A program made the translations under genes and the position numbers. A model generated the notes under the pieces. The model had not been told where the DNA came from. It did no database searches and saw only the letters and a program-made list of their open reading frames with translations. From the NCBI GenBank assembly GCA_027021705.1, contig JALUTT010000003.1, forward strand, positions 1 through 64,000: DNA of 64,000 nt, in the 5' to 3' direction. Of this stretch, positions 3 to 43,884 are shown in pieces. Numbering within the stretch: position 1 is the first letter of the stretch; every line of letters begins with the position of its first letter. This stretch comes from Anaerolineae bacterium. Lineage in GTDB: Bacteria > Chloroflexota > Anaerolineae > S140-20.

Positions 3-2936
<2,934 letters not shown>

Positions 2937-2956
2937 CGGCCCGGCGCCCCGGCGAC

Positions 2957-3185
2957 TCTGCATCTCTGCATCTCTGCGTCTCTCGCGCCTCCGCGTCTCT
3001 GCGTTTCAGCGTCTCTGCGTTTCAGCGTCTCTGCGTTTCAGCGTCTCTGCACCTCCGCGTCTCTGCGTTTCAGCGTCTCTGCGTTTCAGCGTCTCCGCGT
3101 TTCAGCGTCTCTGCACCTCCGCGTCTCTCGCGCCTCCGCGCCTCTGCGTTTCAGCGTCTCTGCGTTTCAGCGTCTCTGCGTTTCA
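2957..3185. repeat. Intergenic octamer tandem array (GCGTCTCT / GCGTTTCA / GCACCTCC units)
   Basis: Directly visible 8-bp periodicity between two convergent genes. Confidence 0.95.
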
Positions 3186-3271
3186 CCCCCTGCCAAAGGG
3201 CAGGACGGAGGCCGGACGAAGGGTTGGTGGGATCGGTGCGGGAGGCGTTGGGGAGGTGAGCGCCCCCCGCC

Positions 3272-4804
3272 TCAATGGCGGAAGTGGCGCACCCCGGTGA
3301 AGACCATCGCCAGCCCCAGCCGGTCGGCCGCCGCCACAACCGCCTCGTCGCGCACGGAGCCGCCCGGCTGGACGACGGCGGTGACGCCGGCCTCGGCCGC
3401 CACCTCCACGCCGTCGGGAAAGGGGAAGAAGGCGTCAGAGGCCATCACCGCCCCCCGCGCCCGGTCGCCGGCCTTGGCCGCCGCCAGCCGCACCGCGTCC
3501 ACCCGGCTGGGCAGCCCCCCCCCGATCCCCACCGTCGCCCGCCCCCGGGCCAGGACGATGGCGTTGGACTTGACGTGCTGCACCGCCACCCAGGCGAAGC
3601 GAAGGGCCTCCCACTCCTCCGGCGTCGGCTCTCGCCGGGTGACCACCCGCCAGGCCGTTCCCTCGGGATCCCCCCGGTCGGGGACCTGGAGCAGGAACCC
3701 GCCCTGCACGGTGCGAAGCTCCCAGGGCGGGGGCTCCGCCTCCGCCACCTGCACCAGCCGGCAGGAGGGCTTGTGGGCCGCCAGCCACTCCCGGGCCGCC
3801 CGGTCGAAGGCCGGCGCGACGATGGCCTCGACGAACTGCTTGCCGATGGCCTCGACCAGGGGGAGGGTGACGGGCCGGTTGACGGCGATGACGCCCCCGA
3901 AGGCGGAGAGGGGGTCGCTCGCCAGGGCCAGGGGGTAGGCCGCCTCGGGGCTCTCGGCGCTGGCGATGCCGCAGGGGGAGAGGTGCTTGACGATGACGAC
4001 GGTGGGCGCGGGGAAGCCGACGGCAGCCCGCCAGGCGGCGTCCAGGTCCAGCAGGTTGTTGTAGGAGAGGGGCTTCCCCTGGAGCAGCCGGCCCCCCAAC
4101 GGCCCCCGGTCGGGCCGGGGGGCGTAGAGGGCGGCGGCCTGGTGGGGGTTCTCGCCGTAGCGCAGCGCCCGGACCCGGTGGAGGGTGAGGGTGAGGCGGG
4201 AGGGGAAGGGGGCCGGCGTCGCCTCCCCTTCGGAGGCGGCCAGGAGGGCTTCGATGGCCGCGTCGTAGTCGCGGGTGTGGGCGAAGGCCTTGGCGGCCAG
4301 CCGGCGGCGGGTCGCCGGGGAGACCTCCCCCCGGGCCTCCAGCTCGGCCAGGACCGGGGCGTAGTCCGCCGGGTCGCAGAGGACGGTCACCCGGGCGAAG
4401 TTCTTGGCCGCCGCCCGGAGCAGGGCGACGCCGCCGATGTCTATCTGCTCCACCGCCTCCTCCACCGTCACGCCGGGCCGGGCGACGGTCTCCCGGAAGG
4501 GGTAGAAGTTGACGGCGACCAGGTCAATGGGCGCGATGCCGTGGGCGGCCAGTTCGGCCCGGTCGGCTGCGCCGGGGCGGGCCAGGATCGCGCCGTGGAT
4601 CGCCGGGTGCAAGGTCTTGACCCGCCCGCCCAGCATCTCGGGGAAGCCGGTGAGTTGGGCCACGTCGGTGACGGGGAGGCCGGCTTTCCGCAGGGCGCGG
4701 GCCGTGCCGCCGCTGGCGACCAGCTCCCAGCCCATCGCCGCCAGCCGGCCGGCGAAGGCGTCCAATCCTGTCTTGTCGTAGAGGGAGAAGAGGGCACGGG
4801 GCAT
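3272..4804 (-). CDS. purH: Bifunctional AICAR formyltransferase / IMP cyclohydrolase
   Basis: MPRALFSLYDK start after AAGGAG RBS. Motifs GRVKTLHP, IDIGG, LRYGENPHQ, SDAFFPF, TGVRHFRH. Confidence 0.97.
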   Translation of the reverse strand: MPRALFSLYDKTGLDAFAGRLAAMGWELVASGGTARALRKAGLPVTDVAQLTGFPEMLGGRVKTLHPAIHGAILARPGAADRAELAAHGIAPIDLVAVNFYPFRETVARPGVTVEEAVEQIDIGGVALLRAAAKNFARVTVLCDPADYAPVLAELEARGEVSPATRRRLAAKAFAHTRDYDAAIEALLAASEGEATPAPFPSRLTLTLHRVRALRYGENPHQAAALYAPRPDRGPLGGRLLQGKPLSYNNLLDLDAAWRAAVGFPAPTVVIVKHLSPCGIASAESPEAAYPLALASDPLSAFGGVIAVNRPVTLPLVEAIGKQFVEAIVAPAFDRAAREWLAAHKPSCRLVQVAEAEPPPWELRTVQGGFLLQVPDRGDPEGTAWRVVTRREPTPEEWEALRFAWVAVQHVKSNAIVLARGRATVGIGGGLPSRVDAVRLAAAKAGDRARGAVMASDAFFPFPDGVEVAAEAGVTAVVQPGGSVRDEAVVAAADRLGLAMVFTGVRHFRH

Positions 4805-4821
4805 GGGCACACTCCTTTGTG

Positions 4822-4861
4822 GCAAGTTGCAAGTTGCAAGTTGCAAGTTGCAAGTTGCAAG
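4822..4861. repeat. Heptamer tandem repeat (GCAAGTT) x~6 just upstream of the purH RBS
   Basis: Seen directly. Confidence 0.95.
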
Positions 4862-4996
4862 CGTGTCGGACTGCTGCCCTCGGGAAGGCACCGAGGGAGG
4901 TGGATGGTGGATGGAAGGCTGCTGAAGTGGACAGAGCGCTCCTCTTTGATAGCGTATGAGGTGACGTCCCACACACGCCAGGAGCGCTCCCTATGA

Positions 4997-39490: not shown

Positions 39491-41194
39491 ATCTCCCATC
39501 GGCGTCCTGGGCTCCGATCTCCTGCTCGCCATATCCGGCATCTGCGCCGTTATCAAGAGATCGCCGGTGTCTTCCTCCGTCACGGGTTGGGCGAGGCGCT
39601 GGACCAGTTGGGCCTGACGCCGCTGCTGAGCCTCCCCCGTCGGATCGCTCGCCGGCCGCCTCCCCCTTCCTCCGCGCTGACCACCCCCCAGCGGCTCCGG
39701 CTGGCCCTAGAGGCCCTGGGGCCCACCTTCGTCAAGCTGGGCCAGATCCTCAGCACCCGTCCCGACCTGCTCCCACCCGACTACATCGCCGAGCTGAGCC
39801 GGCTCCAGGATACCGTCCCGCCGGTCCCCTGGGAGGCGATCCAGAGCTGCCTGGAAGAAGAGCTGGGCGCCCCCTTGAGCGCCCACTTCGCCTCCTTCGA
39901 TCCCCAGCCCATTGCCGCAGCCTCTCTCGCCCAGGTTCATCCGGCCATCCTGCTTGACGGCACCGAGGTGGTCGTCAAGGTGCAGCGCCCCCATATCCTC
40001 CAAATCATCGAGACTGACCTGGAGATCCTCAGCGACCTGGCCTGGTTGGCTCAGCAGCACACCCCCCTGAGCGATCTTTACGACCTGCCGGAGATCACCG
40101 AGGAGTTCGCCTACACGCTGCGGGCTGAACTGGACTACCGGCGGGAAGGGCGTAATGCCGACCGCTTCCGGGAGAACTTCGCCGACGAGCCGGCCCTCTA
40201 CATCCCCCAGGTCTACTGGGAGACGACGACCCGCCGGGTGTTGACGCTGGAACGCATCCGGGGGATCAAGATAGACGACGTGGAGGCCCTCGATGCGGCC
40301 GGCTACGACCGCAAGCGGATCGCCCTCCACGCTGCCCGCATCATCATCCAAGAGGTCCTCGTGGACGGCTTCTTCCACGCCGACCCCCATCCCGGCAACT
40401 TCGTCGTCATGCCCGGCGAGGTGATCGGCGCGATGGACTTCGGGATGGTGGGCTACCTGGACCGCCGGCTTCGCGAGGACCTGGTCCGCCTCTACATCGC
40501 TGCCGTGCAGGTGGACAGCGAGGCCGTCGCCGATCAGCTCATCCGCATGGGAGCTGCCCGACAGGGGGTGGATCGCAACGGCCTGAGCCGGGACATCGCC
40601 CGGCTCTTGCGCAAGTATCAGGGGCTGCCGCTCAAAGAGATCCGAGCCCAGGAGGTCATTCGGGATGTGATGCCCATCGCCTTCCGCCATCACTTGCGGC
40701 TGCCCAGTGACCTCTGGCTGTTGGGGAAGACCTTGGGGATGATGGAGGGGGTGGGGTTGAAGCTCGACCCCGACTTCGACATCTTCGCCGTCTCGGAGCC
40801 CTACGTCCGCCGCCTGATGCGGCAGGTTTGGTTGCCCGACCACTGGGGGCCTTCCCTGCTCCGGGGGATCACCGACTGGGCGGAGCTGACCAGCGTGGCC
40901 CCGCGCCAGGCGGTGCGCTTGCTGGAGCAGGCGGAACGGGGGGAGTTGCAGATCCGGCTGCGCCTGCAGGAACTGGAAGAGACGACGGCGCGGATGGACC
41001 GCATGGCCAGCCGGCTGGCCCTCAGCATCCTCGTCGCCGCCTTCATCGTCGCCCTGGCCCTGCTCATCCCCACCCTCAACCTGAACGCTCAATGGGGGAT
41101 CATCACCTGGTTGGTGATCCTGGGCTTCATCGTCGCCAGCTTCCTGGGTCTCTGGCTCCTGATCACCATCTGGAGGGCCGGTCGCTGGCGGTGA
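39491..41194 (+). CDS. AarF/ABC1/UbiB-family atypical kinase (start probably non-canonical ATC)
   Basis: LGPTFVKLGQILSTRPDL, AAASLAQVH, VVVKVQRP, FFHADPHPGN, MDFGMVG, C-terminal TMs. Family-like N-terminus RHLRRYQEIAGVFLRHG lies upstream of the first TTG. Confidence 0.9.
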   Translation: MSHRRPGLRSPARHIRHLRRYQEIAGVFLRHGLGEALDQLGLTPLLSLPRRIARRPPPPSSALTTPQRLRLALEALGPTFVKLGQILSTRPDLLPPDYIAELSRLQDTVPPVPWEAIQSCLEEELGAPLSAHFASFDPQPIAAASLAQVHPAILLDGTEVVVKVQRPHILQIIETDLEILSDLAWLAQQHTPLSDLYDLPEITEEFAYTLRAELDYRREGRNADRFRENFADEPALYIPQVYWETTTRRVLTLERIRGIKIDDVEALDAAGYDRKRIALHAARIIIQEVLVDGFFHADPHPGNFVVMPGEVIGAMDFGMVGYLDRRLREDLVRLYIAAVQVDSEAVADQLIRMGAARQGVDRNGLSRDIARLLRKYQGLPLKEIRAQEVIRDVMPIAFRHHLRLPSDLWLLGKTLGMMEGVGLKLDPDFDIFAVSEPYVRRLMRQVWLPDHWGPSLLRGITDWAELTSVAPRQAVRLLEQAERGELQIRLRLQELEETTARMDRMASRLALSILVAAFIVALALLIPTLNLNAQWGIITWLVILGFIVASFLGLWLLITIWRAGRWR

Positions 41195-41218: not shown

Positions 41219-41635
41219 TCATCCCGGGGGCGTCTCCACCTCCGACGGCAGTGGCCAGCCCCGGGCCTGGAGCCGCCGCTCCACCTCGGCCAGGAGCTCG
41301 GGCTCCGACTCCCAGCCGACGAACTTCTGACCATCTATGAGAAAGGTGGGGTAGCGACGGATCCAGTGACGGATCAGCCGCCAGATTCCCACCAGGGATT
41401 CGGGGTCTACGATGCGGATCAGCACCGCTCCCCGATAGCGCTCCGCCACCTCCCGGGCCCAGGTGCAGACCCGCAGGTACTCCTCGCGGAGCCACTCAGG
41501 ATATTCGTTGATCTCCTCGTTATGGACTTTGTCCCCGATACCAAGGCCCGCTTGGTTTGACATCCACTCGCAGTGGGGTCAATGGAGCTGATAGCTCAGC
41601 ACGGGGGCAATGACCTCAACAATCAGCCGCCGCAT
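41219..41635 (-). CDS. Candidate selenoprotein, thioredoxin-like fold with UxxC (in-frame TGA at 41579-41581)
   Basis: GGAGG RBS and ATG at 41635. MRRLIVEVIAPVLSYQLH-TGA-PHCEW... aligns without gaps to the neighbour's ...FQSH-C-SQCEF. Confidence 0.75.
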
Positions 41636-42027
41636 CCTGCTTCCTCCATGCCTTGGGCCGACAGCTTCTCCTCGATCGCCGCTCGCAGGGCCGGCTCCGA
41701 TTCCCACCCGACGAACTTCTGACCGTCCAACAGGAAGGTCGGGTAACGGCGGATCCAATAGCGCAGCAAGCGCCACATCCCCTCCAGCGACTGGGGGTCC
41801 ACGATGCAGACCCGCACTGCGCCCTGGTAGCGCCGGGCGATCTCCCGAACCCAATCGGAGACCTGGAGGTAGGCCTCCTGCAGCCACGCCGGATAGGCGT
41901 TGATCGCTTCCTGCTGCACGGCGGCGTTGACCCCCAGCCCGGTCTTGTCGAAGACGAACTCGCACTGGGAACAGTGGGACTGGAAAGTCAGGACCGGTGT
42001 GACCACCTCGACGACGATCCCTCGCAT
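41623..42027 (-). CDS. Thioredoxin-like CxxC protein (Cys paralogue of the adjacent gene)
   Basis: HCSQC motif, RYPTF cis-Pro-like motif, GGAGGAG RBS. Confidence 0.85.
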   Translation of the reverse strand: MRGIVVEVVTPVLTFQSHCSQCEFVFDKTGLGVNAAVQQEAINAYPAWLQEAYLQVSDWVREIARRYQGAVRVCIVDPQSLEGMWRLLRYWIRRYPTFLLDGQKFVGWESEPALRAAIEEKLSAQGMEEAGCGG

Positions 42028-42057
42028 TGACCTCTCCTCCCTCGGCATTCGAGCAAC

Positions 42058-42095
42058 ACAGGTGGGAGAGCCCATCCGTAGAGCCCTCCCACCTG
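42058..42095 (-). terminator. Hairpin between cstA and the thioredoxin-like pair
   Basis: CAGGTGGGAG...CTCCCACCTG. Confidence 0.55.
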
Positions 42096-42126
42096 CAGTG
42101 TTGACGTCAGCAGACCGAGGCGTTTC

Positions 42127-43884
42127 TCAGCGGGCTGCCATCGCCATCTCGGTGCGGGCCCTCTGGAAAGAGCGGAGCCCGTCGTAGGCCAGCAGTAGGG
42201 CCGCCAGGGCGAGGAAGAGCCCGATGAGGCCGGCCACCAGGTTGCCGAAGACGAAGGCCGCCTCGATGCCCGGCTCGAAGGCCGCGTTGAAGGACTTGTA
42301 GGCCGTGATCAGCAGGGCGGTCACCGTGGTGACGTACATGAAGACCGCCGGCCAGAAGGTCCAGTTGTAGGCTTTCCCCTCTCGGGCCAGCCAGATGGTG
42401 ATGAGCAGCAGGGCCAGGCCGGCGAAGAGCTGGTTGGCCCCACCGAAGAGCACCCAGATCCTCTGCCAGAAGCCGGTCCACAGGATCAGCAGGGTGAAGA
42501 GGATGGCGACGATGGAGCCGACGTGGGGGTTCTTGAAGGCGACGATCTTGTCGCCGATCAGCTCGGCGCTGGCCACCCGCATGAAGCGCAGGACCAACTG
42601 CATCACCGTGAGCGCCATCACGGCCAGGAAGATGGAGCCGATGGCTGTCCCTAGATCGGCGGGGACACCGAGCACGCCCAGGAAGCGGGACATCCCGTCG
42701 GCAAAGACCCCACCGGCCTTTGCGGTCAGCTTCCAGTTCTGGGTTGGGTCATAGAAGGTGCCGGCCGTCGCCGTAACCGCGAAGACGACGGAGAGGACCC
42801 CCAACACCGCCTCGGTGTACATCGCGCCGGCCCCGACGGGCAAGGCGTCGGTCTCCTTCTCAAGCTGGCGGGCCGTGCCCGAGGTGGAGACCAGGCTGTG
42901 CCAGCCGGAGATGGCCCCGCAGGAGATGGTGACGAAGAGGATAGGCCATAGCCAGCCCAGGTGGGGTTGGTTCCAAGTGACGAAGGCCGGGATGGCGAAG
43001 TTGGTCTTGGCCGTGCCCACCCCCAGGGTCGCCAGGAAGATGCCCACGATGGAGCCCACGATGCCCAGGAGGACGAACCAGAAGGAGGTGTAGTTGATGG
43101 GCTGGGCGAAGCGCCAGATGGGGAGCACCGACCCCAGGTAGCAGAAGGCCAGGGCCACGATCCCCCACAGCCAGACGGACCACTTCATCGGTCCGTAGGG
43201 GGTCTTGTAGAGCACGCCTTCGGCGTCACCGGCCAGCCCGTTGATGCCTTGGGCGATGTTGGTGAAGAAGCCGGTCGTGCCCAGCCAGATGCCGATGAGG
43301 GCCAGGGCCACGGTGAGGACGGTGGTGAAGAGCAGGTCCTGCTTCCAGCGGTAGGTCATCTGCCCGGCCAGGAGCCCTGCCAAGGTCAGGAAGAGGAAGC
43401 CGAAAGGAACCACCGGATTGGCCAGCAGGCCGGCCACGACGTAACCGAAGGCACCCATGATGAGGAGCAGGTAGAAGTAGAGGAAGCTCAGGAGGATGCC
43501 CCGCGCTCGAGGGGAAATAAGCTTGTAGCTCAGACCGCCTAGGGTCATGCCCTCGTTCCGCATCGCCAGCATGGCCGAGGCGTAGTCCTGCACCCAGCCG
43601 ATGAAGAAGACGCCGATCACCAGCCACAGCACGGCCGGCAGCCATCCCCACTGCACGGCGACGATGGGACCGACGATGGGGCCCAGCGCGGCGATGGACT
43701 TGAACTGATAGCCGAAGAGCACGCTTCCACTAGCCGGCATGAAGTCCACGCCATCCTGGTAGAGGGTCGCCGGCGTCGCCCGTTTGGGATCCGACTGGAT
43801 AACCTCCCGGTCCATCTTGCTCGCGTAGAAGCGATAGCCCAGGATGACGATCACCAACGTGATGACCAGGACTAGCAGTGCCAT
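42127..43884 (-). CDS. cstA: Carbon starvation protein A family transporter
   Basis: TPA...DGVDFMP, GPIVGP, QWGWLP, WPILFVTISCGAISGWHSLV, FGGANQL. Confidence 0.92.
   Translation of the reverse strand: MALLVLVITLVIVILGYRFYASKMDREVIQSDPKRATPATLYQDGVDFMPASGSVLFGYQFKSIAALGPIVGPIVAVQWGWLPAVLWLVIGVFFIGWVQDYASAMLAMRNEGMTLGGLSYKLISPRARGILLSFLYFYLLLIMGAFGYVVAGLLANPVVPFGFLFLTLAGLLAGQMTYRWKQDLLFTTVLTVALALIGIWLGTTGFFTNIAQGINGLAGDAEGVLYKTPYGPMKWSVWLWGIVALAFCYLGSVLPIWRFAQPINYTSFWFVLLGIVGSIVGIFLATLGVGTAKTNFAIPAFVTWNQPHLGWLWPILFVTISCGAISGWHSLVSTSGTARQLEKETDALPVGAGAMYTEAVLGVLSVVFAVTATAGTFYDPTQNWKLTAKAGGVFADGMSRFLGVLGVPADLGTAIGSIFLAVMALTVMQLVLRFMRVASAELIGDKIVAFKNPHVGSIVAILFTLLILWTGFWQRIWVLFGGANQLFAGLALLLITIWLAREGKAYNWTFWPAVFMYVTTVTALLITAYKSFNAAFEPGIEAAFVFGNLVAGLIGLFLALAALLLAYDGLRSFQRARTEMAMAAR

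Follow-up and report, generated by a model that had tools for sequence, protein, structure and literature searches.

We analysed a window of 64,000 nt, i.e., the whole stretch formed by positions 1 to 64,000 of contig JALUTT010000003.1 of an Anaerolineae bacterium (GCA_027021705.1), and within it a minus-strand gene at 41219..41635 that very probably encodes a selenoprotein, with an in-frame TGA codon read as selenocysteine (Sec). The gene belongs to an array that opens with cstA and also contains a paralogue with cysteine in place of Sec; the family of these two small proteins is referred to here as TrxL. The features of the locus, in window coordinates, are the following:

41219..41635, minus strand: probable Sec (selenoprotein) gene, 138 codons plus a TGA stop, with a predicted product of thioredoxin (Trx) fold and active site H-U-P-H-C
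41579..41581, minus strand: in-frame TGA, codon 19, aligned with the first Cys of CxxC and read here as Sec
41643..41647, minus strand: putative ribosome-binding site (RBS) GGAGG, 7 nt 5' of the ATG at 41635, read from sequence
41540..41556, minus strand: core hairpin of the putative Sec insertion sequence (SECIS), 6-bp stem ACCAAG/CUUGGU, loop CGGGC
41523..41566, minus strand: extended SECIS helix, with lower pairs UGUC/GACA and UGGA/UCCA around the core
41623..42027, minus strand: Cys paralogue, 134 aa, C-S-Q-C, without hairpin (2/6 register pairs)
42127..43884, minus strand: cstA (carbon starvation / pyruvate-peptide transporter family; Pfam PF02554, E=4.3e-110), first in the array cstA-TrxL(Cys)-TrxL(Sec)
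39587-41194, plus strand: ABC1/UbiB-type atypical kinase gene, convergent with the Sec gene, 24-25 nt between the stop codons

An earlier note on this DNA, made from the letters alone, had claimed that the open reading frame (ORF) list splits the gene in two and that it runs in one frame from an ATG preceded by GGAGG down to 41219; all of these elements are present in the sequence. From the start codon ATG 41635-41633, with GGAGG at 41647-41643 and a 7-nt spacer, the frame reads MRRLIVEVIAPVLSYQLH-TGA(41581-41579)-PHCEWMSNQAGLG... up to the stop codon at 41221-41219, and its translation with TGA taken as U gives 138 aa. At this gene the ORF list contains only a 114-aa piece, 41219..41563, which begins at Met25. 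The start of the Sec gene overlaps the 3' end of the Cys paralogue by 13 nt. By BLASTP, the two products share 75/126 identities (60%) with no gaps (E=3e-60), and since the alignment is gap-free, the TGA corresponds exactly to the first Cys of CxxC, represented in the paralogue by CSQC at residues 19-22; this agrees with the placement at codon 19 proposed in the note on the basis of an ungapped paralogue. The stretch IRRYPTFL.DGQKFVGWESEP, which had been claimed for both copies, is indeed common to the Sec product and the Cys paralogue. Scanning the window with Rfam and ARAGORN gave no match; bacterial SECIS elements are not detected by any Rfam family.

As for the capacity to insert Sec, the genome (5.19 Mb in 183 contigs, with the window on contig C3) encodes tRNA-Sec (72.5 bits; anticodon TCA according to ARAGORN), selA (566.1 bits), selB (303.7 bits, with a further 44.3 bits from its C-terminal part) and selD (375.9 bits; contig C41:5488-6420), all four above the curated cut-offs. 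The check for selA, selB, selC and selD suggested in the note is thereby answered in the positive. The selD gene contains one in-frame TGA and, judged from its sequence, is itself a selenoprotein gene. We found selA above cut-off also in 5/5 other tested genomes with TGA forms. A reassigned genetic code is excluded, because TGA is an ordinary stop here too, the Sec gene's own stop included.

The family was detected in 16/61 related genomes searched with the Cys paralogue and in 97/401 genomes of the class by profile search; the latter type of search was needed, as a word-based protein homologue search with the Cys paralogue returned 3 matches only. Within the class sample, TGA occupies the CxxC column in 6/97 family-bearing genomes and was read from the DNA in G009 (two copies), G021, G067, G141 and G212. 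Identity of the TGA forms to the genes of the window amounts to 36-41% (G009, G021) or 42-44% (rows of an 8-sequence alignment, A2), and the remaining genes examined in this sample have Cys at the column. Four other rows marked with one TGA (G121, G360, G172 and G362) and one marked with a TAG (G126) were rejected, the codon in question being the true stop of the gene. Also rejected was an apparent fusion of 621-718 aa in G018 (L025), where ambiguous bases let the frame of a penicillin-binding protein gene continue into that of TrxL.

A scan of a collection holding one genome per species, run with alignment A2, yielded 52 loci, 20 of them with TGA at the CxxC column. According to record titles, which may be wrong for metagenome-assembled genomes (MAGs), the 20 TGA loci come from Anaerolineae and other Chloroflexota, Methylomirabilota/NC10, 'delta proteobacterium' and Thermodesulfobacteriota MAGs, as well as one Pseudomonadota-labelled and one Actinomycetota-labelled MAG. 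In turn, the metagenome scan took in 80 of 210 confirmed relatives; family genes were recognised by pattern in 62/80 loci, with the remaining 18/80 left unclassified, and comprise 68 distinct genes (46 Sec and 22 Cys). In both of these scans the Sec share is overstated, because the search patterns came from Sec-type sequences. Overall, there are 64 distinct Sec segments falling into four clades, namely NC10-type (16), delta-type (28), G021-type (9) and 'other' (11, including the window gene), and the Cys genes in the two comparison sets number 71 and 22. The alternation of TGA and Cys at position 19, which the note had recommended looking for in other genomes, is thus seen at one and the same column in 64 distinct genes from many genomes and metagenomes, U19 being aligned with the invariant C19 of the family. 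A profile search against 1.84 billion representatives gave 447 matches at E <= 0.001, and about 40 of the 150 top representatives have as their first residue a Met directly following the CxxC column, which we take as the mark of mis-called Sec genes (confirmed in the DNA only where this was available).

Damaged members of the family occur as well. L080 (G389) carries an internal TAG at a conserved Trp, and L189 an extra in-frame stop two codons 5' of the Sec TGA, each being either a pseudogene or a sequencing error. L112, from a Deltaproteobacteria-labelled MAG (match 3001-3321), is a delta-type gene with Leu at the Sec/Cys column followed later by a premature TAA, and looks like a decayed Sec gene.

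The note had also cautioned that other DNA might show TGC or TGT at this codon. We compared the window with strain-variant contigs from runs X2 and X3 (study P2) and X4 (study P3), whereas run X1, which may be the source sample, was not counted as independent. The X2 contig (record 9; 41339-42100) differs from the window at 17 positions, that of X3 (record 13; 41259-42100) at 21 and that of X4 (record 15; 41324-41588) at 4, and none of them has a change at 41579-41581, so TGA is kept in variants from two other studies; X4 is the weaker evidence, because its contig ends 7 nt beyond the TGA codon. Inside the Sec gene, 8/9 variant sites lie at third codon positions. One variant, at 41546, converts the loop CGGGC to CGGGU, as found in the Sec members L102, L114 and L119. 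All three contigs lack one base at 41650, 3 nt 5' of the GGAGG of the Sec gene, which puts the last ~9 codons of the Cys paralogue out of frame; the C-terminal tail of the paralogue and the 13-nt overlap are therefore strain-dependent.

The hairpin proposed in the note, ACCAAG-CGGGC-CTTGGT with a TGTC/GACA extension, is present as well. Its parts are located at 41556-41551, 41550-41546 and 41545-41540, respectively, and the extension at 41562-41559 and 41533-41530; the hairpin sets in 22 nt after the UGA and its loop 28 nt after it, close to the 29 nt estimated before. Published criteria for bacterial SECIS (bSECIS) elements require a loop of 3-9 nt with G in position 1 or 2, an upper stem of 4-16 bp, 16-37 nt from UGA to loop, and a minimum free energy (MFE) no higher than -7.5 kcal/mol (PMC13188914). 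The hairpin of the window passes all of them (loop CGGGC with G at position 2, 6 bp, 28 nt and, with the extension included (nt 16-59 after the U of UGA), MFE -10.8 kcal/mol). Geometry fitting the criteria was found in 21/21 Sec segments, of which 16/21 also pass the energy limit.

In a fixed register, with pairs 26-42 to 31-37 numbered from the U of UGA, at least 5/6 pairs form in 16/20 distinct Sec genes as opposed to 4/71 Cys genes. The four exceptions (L079, L096, L109 and L117) are placed by the tree within or beside Sec-containing clades, and their hairpins may be relics of SECIS elements that outlasted a change from Sec to Cys. Across 16 aligned Sec genes, 83.6% of the cells are paired and 5/8 pairs change on both sides, e.g., A-U/G-C at 26-42, C-G/U-A at 27-41, A-U/U-A at 29-39 and G-C/U-A at 31-37, so the SECIS check advised in the note brought to light compensatory changes in addition to agreement with the published criteria. 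The covariation score of these genes is 0.451 compared with a shuffle mean of 0.195, and 0/500 shuffles score as high; when the partner is slid by 1-3 columns, pairing drops to 53% or less and the covariation score to 0.148 or less. Moreover, third-position entropy in the diverse 'other' Sec clade is 0-0.44 bits at the stem sites vs. about 1.0-2.0 bits downstream.

Several observations weigh against the decoding of this TGA as Sec and have to be set beside the above. The folding energy of the element is unexceptional (z = -0.21 for the 71-nt stretch, with 78/200 shuffles folding as well), and for 5/21 Sec segments the most stable hairpin of fitting geometry lies between -3.2 and -7.4, short of the -7.5 kcal/mol limit; the signal beyond chance comes from the comparison, i.e., from the TGA column in 64 genes and the covariation, and not from energy. 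Part of the hairpin's conservation reflects the protein, since the stem codes for the conserved residues (Q/L)(A/G)G(L/I)G, and Cys genes encoding Q-A-G-[LIM]-G form 2-6/6 of the register pairs, mostly 3-4. In the 16 NC10-type Sec genes, the register of the window is replaced by a shifted hairpin, CGUUCCU-GGA-AGGAGCG at nt 17-33, with a GACCCC/GGGGUC helix outside it that takes in the GA of UGA; its geometry fits, yet the inner stem is invariant, for which reason it gives no covariation evidence. Finally, selA is found also in 5/5 tested Cys-only genomes, so the machinery does not separate Sec from Cys genomes. Even so, the claim of the note that the gene is a Sec member of a CxxC-type family is borne out by the machinery, the TGA column of 64 genes, the covarying hairpin and the variants that keep TGA, and we regard it as nearly certain from these sequence comparisons that the gene at 41635-41219 (minus strand) is a genuine Sec-decoded selenoprotein gene.

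The structure of the product was approached through the Cys paralogue, for which AlphaFold2 gave a model with a predicted local distance difference test (pLDDT) value of 85.6 overall and 65-69 at residues 11-40. The model consists of a strand (4-9), a helix (20-28) with CxxC at its N-terminal end, helices 35-43 and 47-67, a strand (71-76), a helix (81-89), strands 97-100 and 103-106, and a helix (108-124); the protein opens directly with strand beta-1 and has no signal peptide. The beta-alpha-beta-alpha-beta-beta-alpha order, the position of CxxC at the helix N-terminal end and a Pro before strand beta-3 are those of the thioredoxin-fold superfamily, and on this model the family has a Trx fold with a helical insertion. 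Foldseek placed only thioredoxins at the top of its PDB matches (E about 8e-3, probability about 1.0, template modelling score 0.44-0.5). VIA-align gave Z 10.1 to a designed thioredoxin (root-mean-square deviation 2.3, 83 aligned) and 9.9 to the N-terminal Trx-like domain of SasA; 38 chains reach Z >= 8, and among the matches listed almost all are thioredoxins or Trx-fold domains. A sequence profile search of the PDB produced weak thioredoxin matches only (E=0.0019). The residues C19, C22, P46, D77, S80, G83, R89 and P96 are invariant in the family, and P96, within R-R-Y-P-T-F, appears to occupy the position of the Trx cis-proline. A redox-active mechanism of Trx type is likely.

In a quick tree of 88 family genes, 8 Sec/Cys changes are needed, at least 6 of which are forced by starred branches. 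The Cys paralogue of the window is sister to the Sec gene (Shimodaira-Hasegawa-like approximate likelihood ratio test 90), and the pair falls in a starred clade with the Sec gene of L081 (96), next to an NC10 Sec clade (6 Sec, 1 Cys). In a more careful tree of 48 rows, the window clade (97/93) unites 3 Sec genes, 5 truncated ORF calls, which probably are Sec forms as well, and 2 Cys genes; the Cys copy of the window is nested among the Sec and truncated forms (92/70 and 89/55), and it has no relic hairpin. Tandem Cys and Sec paralogues recur at L081, at the NC10 loci L082-85, at several metagenome loci, and at L103 and L119; the tandem pair of the window is lineage-specific. The branching order rather favours the view, held with some reserve, that the 'CxxC paralogue' of the window arose by duplication of a Sec gene followed by reversion to Cys, and is not the ancestral form.

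We found that TrxL genes for the most part lie beside cstA. A co-directional cstA lies within 1.3 kb of 80/92 Cys genes and 17/65 Sec genes, the latter being distributed between the NC10-type (10/16) and 'other' (7/12, the window gene included) clades. In most subfamilies cstA is positioned upstream, and in the 'AYAPTAFYHC' subfamily downstream. Where the flank permits, the array continues with two paralogous ORFs of ~100 aa that have no Pfam match and share the motif GDLLGVPILPPYY.LRLLP, followed by two single-domain ArsA_ATPase genes (~326 aa). A similar organization was described as cstA-cstX-arsA operons, consisting of cstA, small ORFs of ~90-100 aa and single-domain ArsA homologues of ~330 aa that are often paired (Castillo and Saier, 2010; PMC2963123). 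The core of that cluster is the same as here, whereas a thioredoxin-like member goes unmentioned in the accessible part of that paper, and the small ORFs found here are likened to its CstX by operon layout and size only. In the genome of the window, contig C107 (L222, ~840-4890) carries a cstX-like small ORF followed by an ArsA pair, with a second copy of the small ORF ~1.5 kb beyond; neither cstA nor a TrxL gene stands beside this module, and the constant partner of the family is accordingly cstA. The NC10 loci possess cstA and have no ArsA genes in the available flank.

Two further loci deserve mention. At L102 (2186-2941 and 931-2136), the Sec gene is preceded by a DUF166 gene, with a DUF438/hemerythrin/PAS gene further upstream, and no cstA; the 2026 catalogue counts DUF166 itself among the selenoprotein families (PMC13188914). 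In L114 (1036-2746), from an Actinomycetota-labelled MAG, the cstA located 5' of the Sec gene is split in two overlapping ORFs, by a frameshift or an assembly error.

A complex prediction for CstA with the Cys paralogue reached a score of 0.57 (runs 0.57, 0.60 and 0.57), graded as 'weak support', compared with 0.00 for the highest-scoring of 3 controls; between runs, agreement is at least 91% of contacts, and partner pLDDT is 68 or more. In calibration, the mark was reached by 116/157 solved complexes and 2/215 mismatched pairs, and scores of 0.60 or below comprised 18 of the 157 solved complexes and both mismatches that passed, these counts being only rough because custom alignments were used. 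Given the strong prior from gene adjacency, we read the prediction as modest support. Two points count against an association with CstA: cstA was found near 0/28 delta-type and 0/9 G021-type Sec genes, most of these loci being short-flanked, and the complex score falls in the weak band and comes from the Cys paralogue, not from the Sec protein. The role of the family as an accessory gene of the CstA transporter is shown in part, and TrxL may work physically with CstA, a possibility to which we give slightly less than even weight.

Taken together, the best explanation for the locus, and a highly probable one, is an intact, SECIS-decoded selenoprotein gene of Trx fold that is accessory to CstA. 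SelB-GTP with Sec-tRNA(Sec) would bind the hairpin and insert Sec when the ribosome arrives at the UGA, giving rise to a small cytoplasmic Trx-fold protein of 138 aa with the active site H-U-P-H-C and Sec at the attacking position. Such a protein could act as a selenol/thiol-disulfide oxidoreductase via a U19-C22 selenenylsulfide, and since the family gene usually adjoins cstA, TrxL might reduce, oxidise or sense a thiol on CstA, its partners or its cargo.

Of the other explanations, the one that survives best treats TrxL as a general cytoplasmic antioxidant or Trx-like reductant with no specific tie to CstA, the adjacency being historical. We consider it unlikely, though well above the remaining ones. 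It would account for the two Sec clades outside the cstA context and for the stress-type neighbours seen at some loci, i.e., a KatG-type peroxidase gene upstream (L095), Usp and ferritin/rubrerythrin-like genes (L103) and the hemerythrin-domain gene of L102; yet the proximity of cstA to 80/92 Cys genes, in both gene orders, is hard to maintain without selection, and the complex prediction stands clear of its controls, albeit in the weak band.

Trx-fold ArsD passes metalloid to ArsA. By analogy, TrxL could be a real selenoprotein that serves as a metal(loid)-binding or cargo chaperone, its H-U-x-H-C cluster handing a soft metal(loid) to ArsA-type ATPases. The two single-domain ArsA_ATPase genes that follow the family gene in most well-flanked loci, and the His flanking the Sec/Cys pair in most Sec forms, are in line with such a role. 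It seems improbable, however, as only C19 and C22 of the active site are invariant and the His is absent in subfamilies such as GLCVSC and GICLAC, the ArsA pair in the genome of the window is located on C107 without cstA or TrxL, and the NC10 loci combine cstA with a flank free of ArsA genes. ArsD itself was neither among the Pfam matches of 19 family members at E <= 1 nor among the Foldseek and VIA-align matches listed, an absence that does not amount to exclusion.

The possibility that the UGA is a stop and that the functional product is the 114-aa protein starting from Met25 (41563) is very improbable. Gene callers do give such ORFs, both here and in relatives (P0004, P0005, P0088, P0112 and the ~40/150 top representatives mentioned above). 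Such a product would, however, be devoid of strand beta-1 and of the entire CxxC of the Trx fold; Sec and Cys forms alike conserve the protein sequence encoded by the 18 codons 5' of the TGA (E7 in at least 90%), Met at that position is not conserved among Sec genes, and no RBS precedes Met25, while GGAGG precedes ATG 41635. Least probable of all is a nonsense-mutated pseudogene, in which a redundant tandem copy would recently have been inactivated by mutation of a Cys codon to TGA: a functional Cys paralogue does lie directly upstream and decayed members exist (L112 with its Leu and premature TAA, L080 with its internal TAG), but TGA stands in the same column of 64 distinct genes from four clades, the frame is intact on both sides of it, the variants keep it with 8/9 of their sites in the gene at third positions, and the hairpin is Sec-specific and covarying.

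The preferred reading, an intact selenoprotein gene accessory to CstA, adds to the prokaryotic selenoproteome a well-supported and apparently uncatalogued family with 64 Sec genes in several phyla, as far as record titles tell. Sec-form genes of this family are now annotated as N-terminally truncated hypothetical proteins. With at least 6-8 Sec/Cys switches, relic hairpins and the tandem pair, the family also provides a compact natural system for following the gain and loss of Sec.

As for the standing of the family among known ones, the earlier note had not recognised it as a catalogued selenoprotein family, and our searches agree. Pfam and NCBIfam gave nothing for the two proteins of the window except TIGR00411 at E=0.18, and none of their models reached its cut-off in 19 members scanned singly; the NCBIfam set includes models for the families of Haft and Tolstoy (2025). 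The sub-threshold echoes among these 19 comprise TIGR00411 (5/19, best E 3.4e-4; 11.9 bits on the first member vs. a cut-off of 92.75), TIGR03757 (4/19) and TIGR00412 (2/19, 7.8e-4) from NCBIfam, and DUF1525 (5/19, best E 3.5e-4) and Thioredoxin_3 PF13192 (2/19, best E 0.0027) from Pfam. Likewise, SaoT (NF040730) was matched by 1/19 members at E=0.092, below its cut-off. The neighbours in the ESM Atlas are clusters of 'hypothetical protein' and one of 'Glutaredoxin family protein'. Among the 119 selenoprotein families and subfamilies of the 2026 catalogue, nearly all of which are keyed to Pfam or NCBIfam, none fits in the portion of the source available (PMC13188914); the accessible text on the nine new families of deep-Sep mentions neither thioredoxin nor CstA (PMC12013277), and BSepDB covers previously reported families only (PMC13326102). 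The family has therefore probably not been reported as a selenoprotein before, judging by the Pfam/NCBIfam libraries and one review. This restricted basis tells against its novelty, and the main uncertainty is presented by the many candidates that Deng et al. predicted from groundwater MAGs, among them 63 selenoprotein genes of one Methylomirabilota MAG (PMC13188914).

The window family represents a well-known kind of selenoprotein, namely a Trx-fold UxxC protein with a coding-region SECIS, and its association with CstA is the more interesting aspect. Bacterial Sec thioredoxin and glutaredoxin (PF00085/PF00462, UxxC), which are listed as experimentally verified (PMC13188914, Table 1), have the same fold, Sec at the N-terminal attacking Cys of CxxC, the same coding-region SECIS just 3' of the UGA, and abundant Cys homologues. 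They differ in that PF00085 and PF00462 are absent from the Pfam matches of the 19 members at E <= 1, and in that the window family has an extra helical segment (~residues 29-46), the motif H-U-x-H-C-E and linkage to cstA. The minimal thioredoxins MJ0307 and MTH895 (TIGR00411, TIGR00412, Thioredoxin_3) share the small fold without N-terminal extension, and models of this kind are the only ones in the libraries to give any echo, although all of the 19 members stay below the curated cut-offs of the Thioredoxin_3, MJ0307 and MTH895 families. The 'Thioredoxin-like selenoprotein Sec.1/Sec.2' (PF13192) has CxU/UxC spacing in contrast to UxxC here (PMC13188914). Selenoproteins of the HUIPC model NF047660 are thioredoxin-like and, as in the window family, have H-U-x-x-C around Sec, but the model has no match at the locus (cut-off 105 bits; the best score in the whole genome, 14.2 bits, falls on a different contig) and 0/19 members match it at E <= 1.

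The active site of DsbA is C-P-H-C. The U-P-H-C of the window shares its x-x dipeptide, whereas the window protein has no signal peptide and no Pfam DSBA match, and its architecture differs.

A parallel in gene context is offered by DUF466 proteins. In E. coli, the DUF466 proteins YbdD and YjiX have a Cys-Cys end, with genes beside that of CstA or its paralogue (bioRxiv 10.1101/2022.07.06.499078), and relatives in Campylobacter and Helicobacter end in Cys-Sec (KCU-star, NF033934; bioRxiv 10.1101/2022.07.06.499078; PMC13188914). Like the window family, DUF466/KCU-star proteins are small and cstA-adjacent, with a redox-type Cys pair and Sec variants in some lineages; unlike it, they are of unrelated sequence and size (models of 57-61 positions), with Sec at the C-terminus and no UxxC of a Trx fold. 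The models PF04328 and NF033934 gave no match on the family members, and their best matches in the genome (13.4 and 20 bits) are below cut-off and outside the window; the window family would thus be another small redox protein that is encoded beside cstA and has Sec forms, without relation to DUF466. It is tempting, if speculative and on balance doubtful, to propose that transporters of the CstA family depend on a small dithiol or selenol-thiol partner of their own, and that DUF466/KCU-star and the window family, unrelated to each other, were both recruited to this place beside cstA and both evolved Sec. If so, CstA transport would be redox-gated, or its cargo would be thiol-reactive (possibly chalcogen-containing) and not simply pyruvate or peptides, and the Sec forms would mark lineages where that CstA chemistry is rate-limiting. 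The cstA linkage of TrxL, parallel to that of DUF466/KCU-star, provides a testable handle on the role of CstA accessory proteins.

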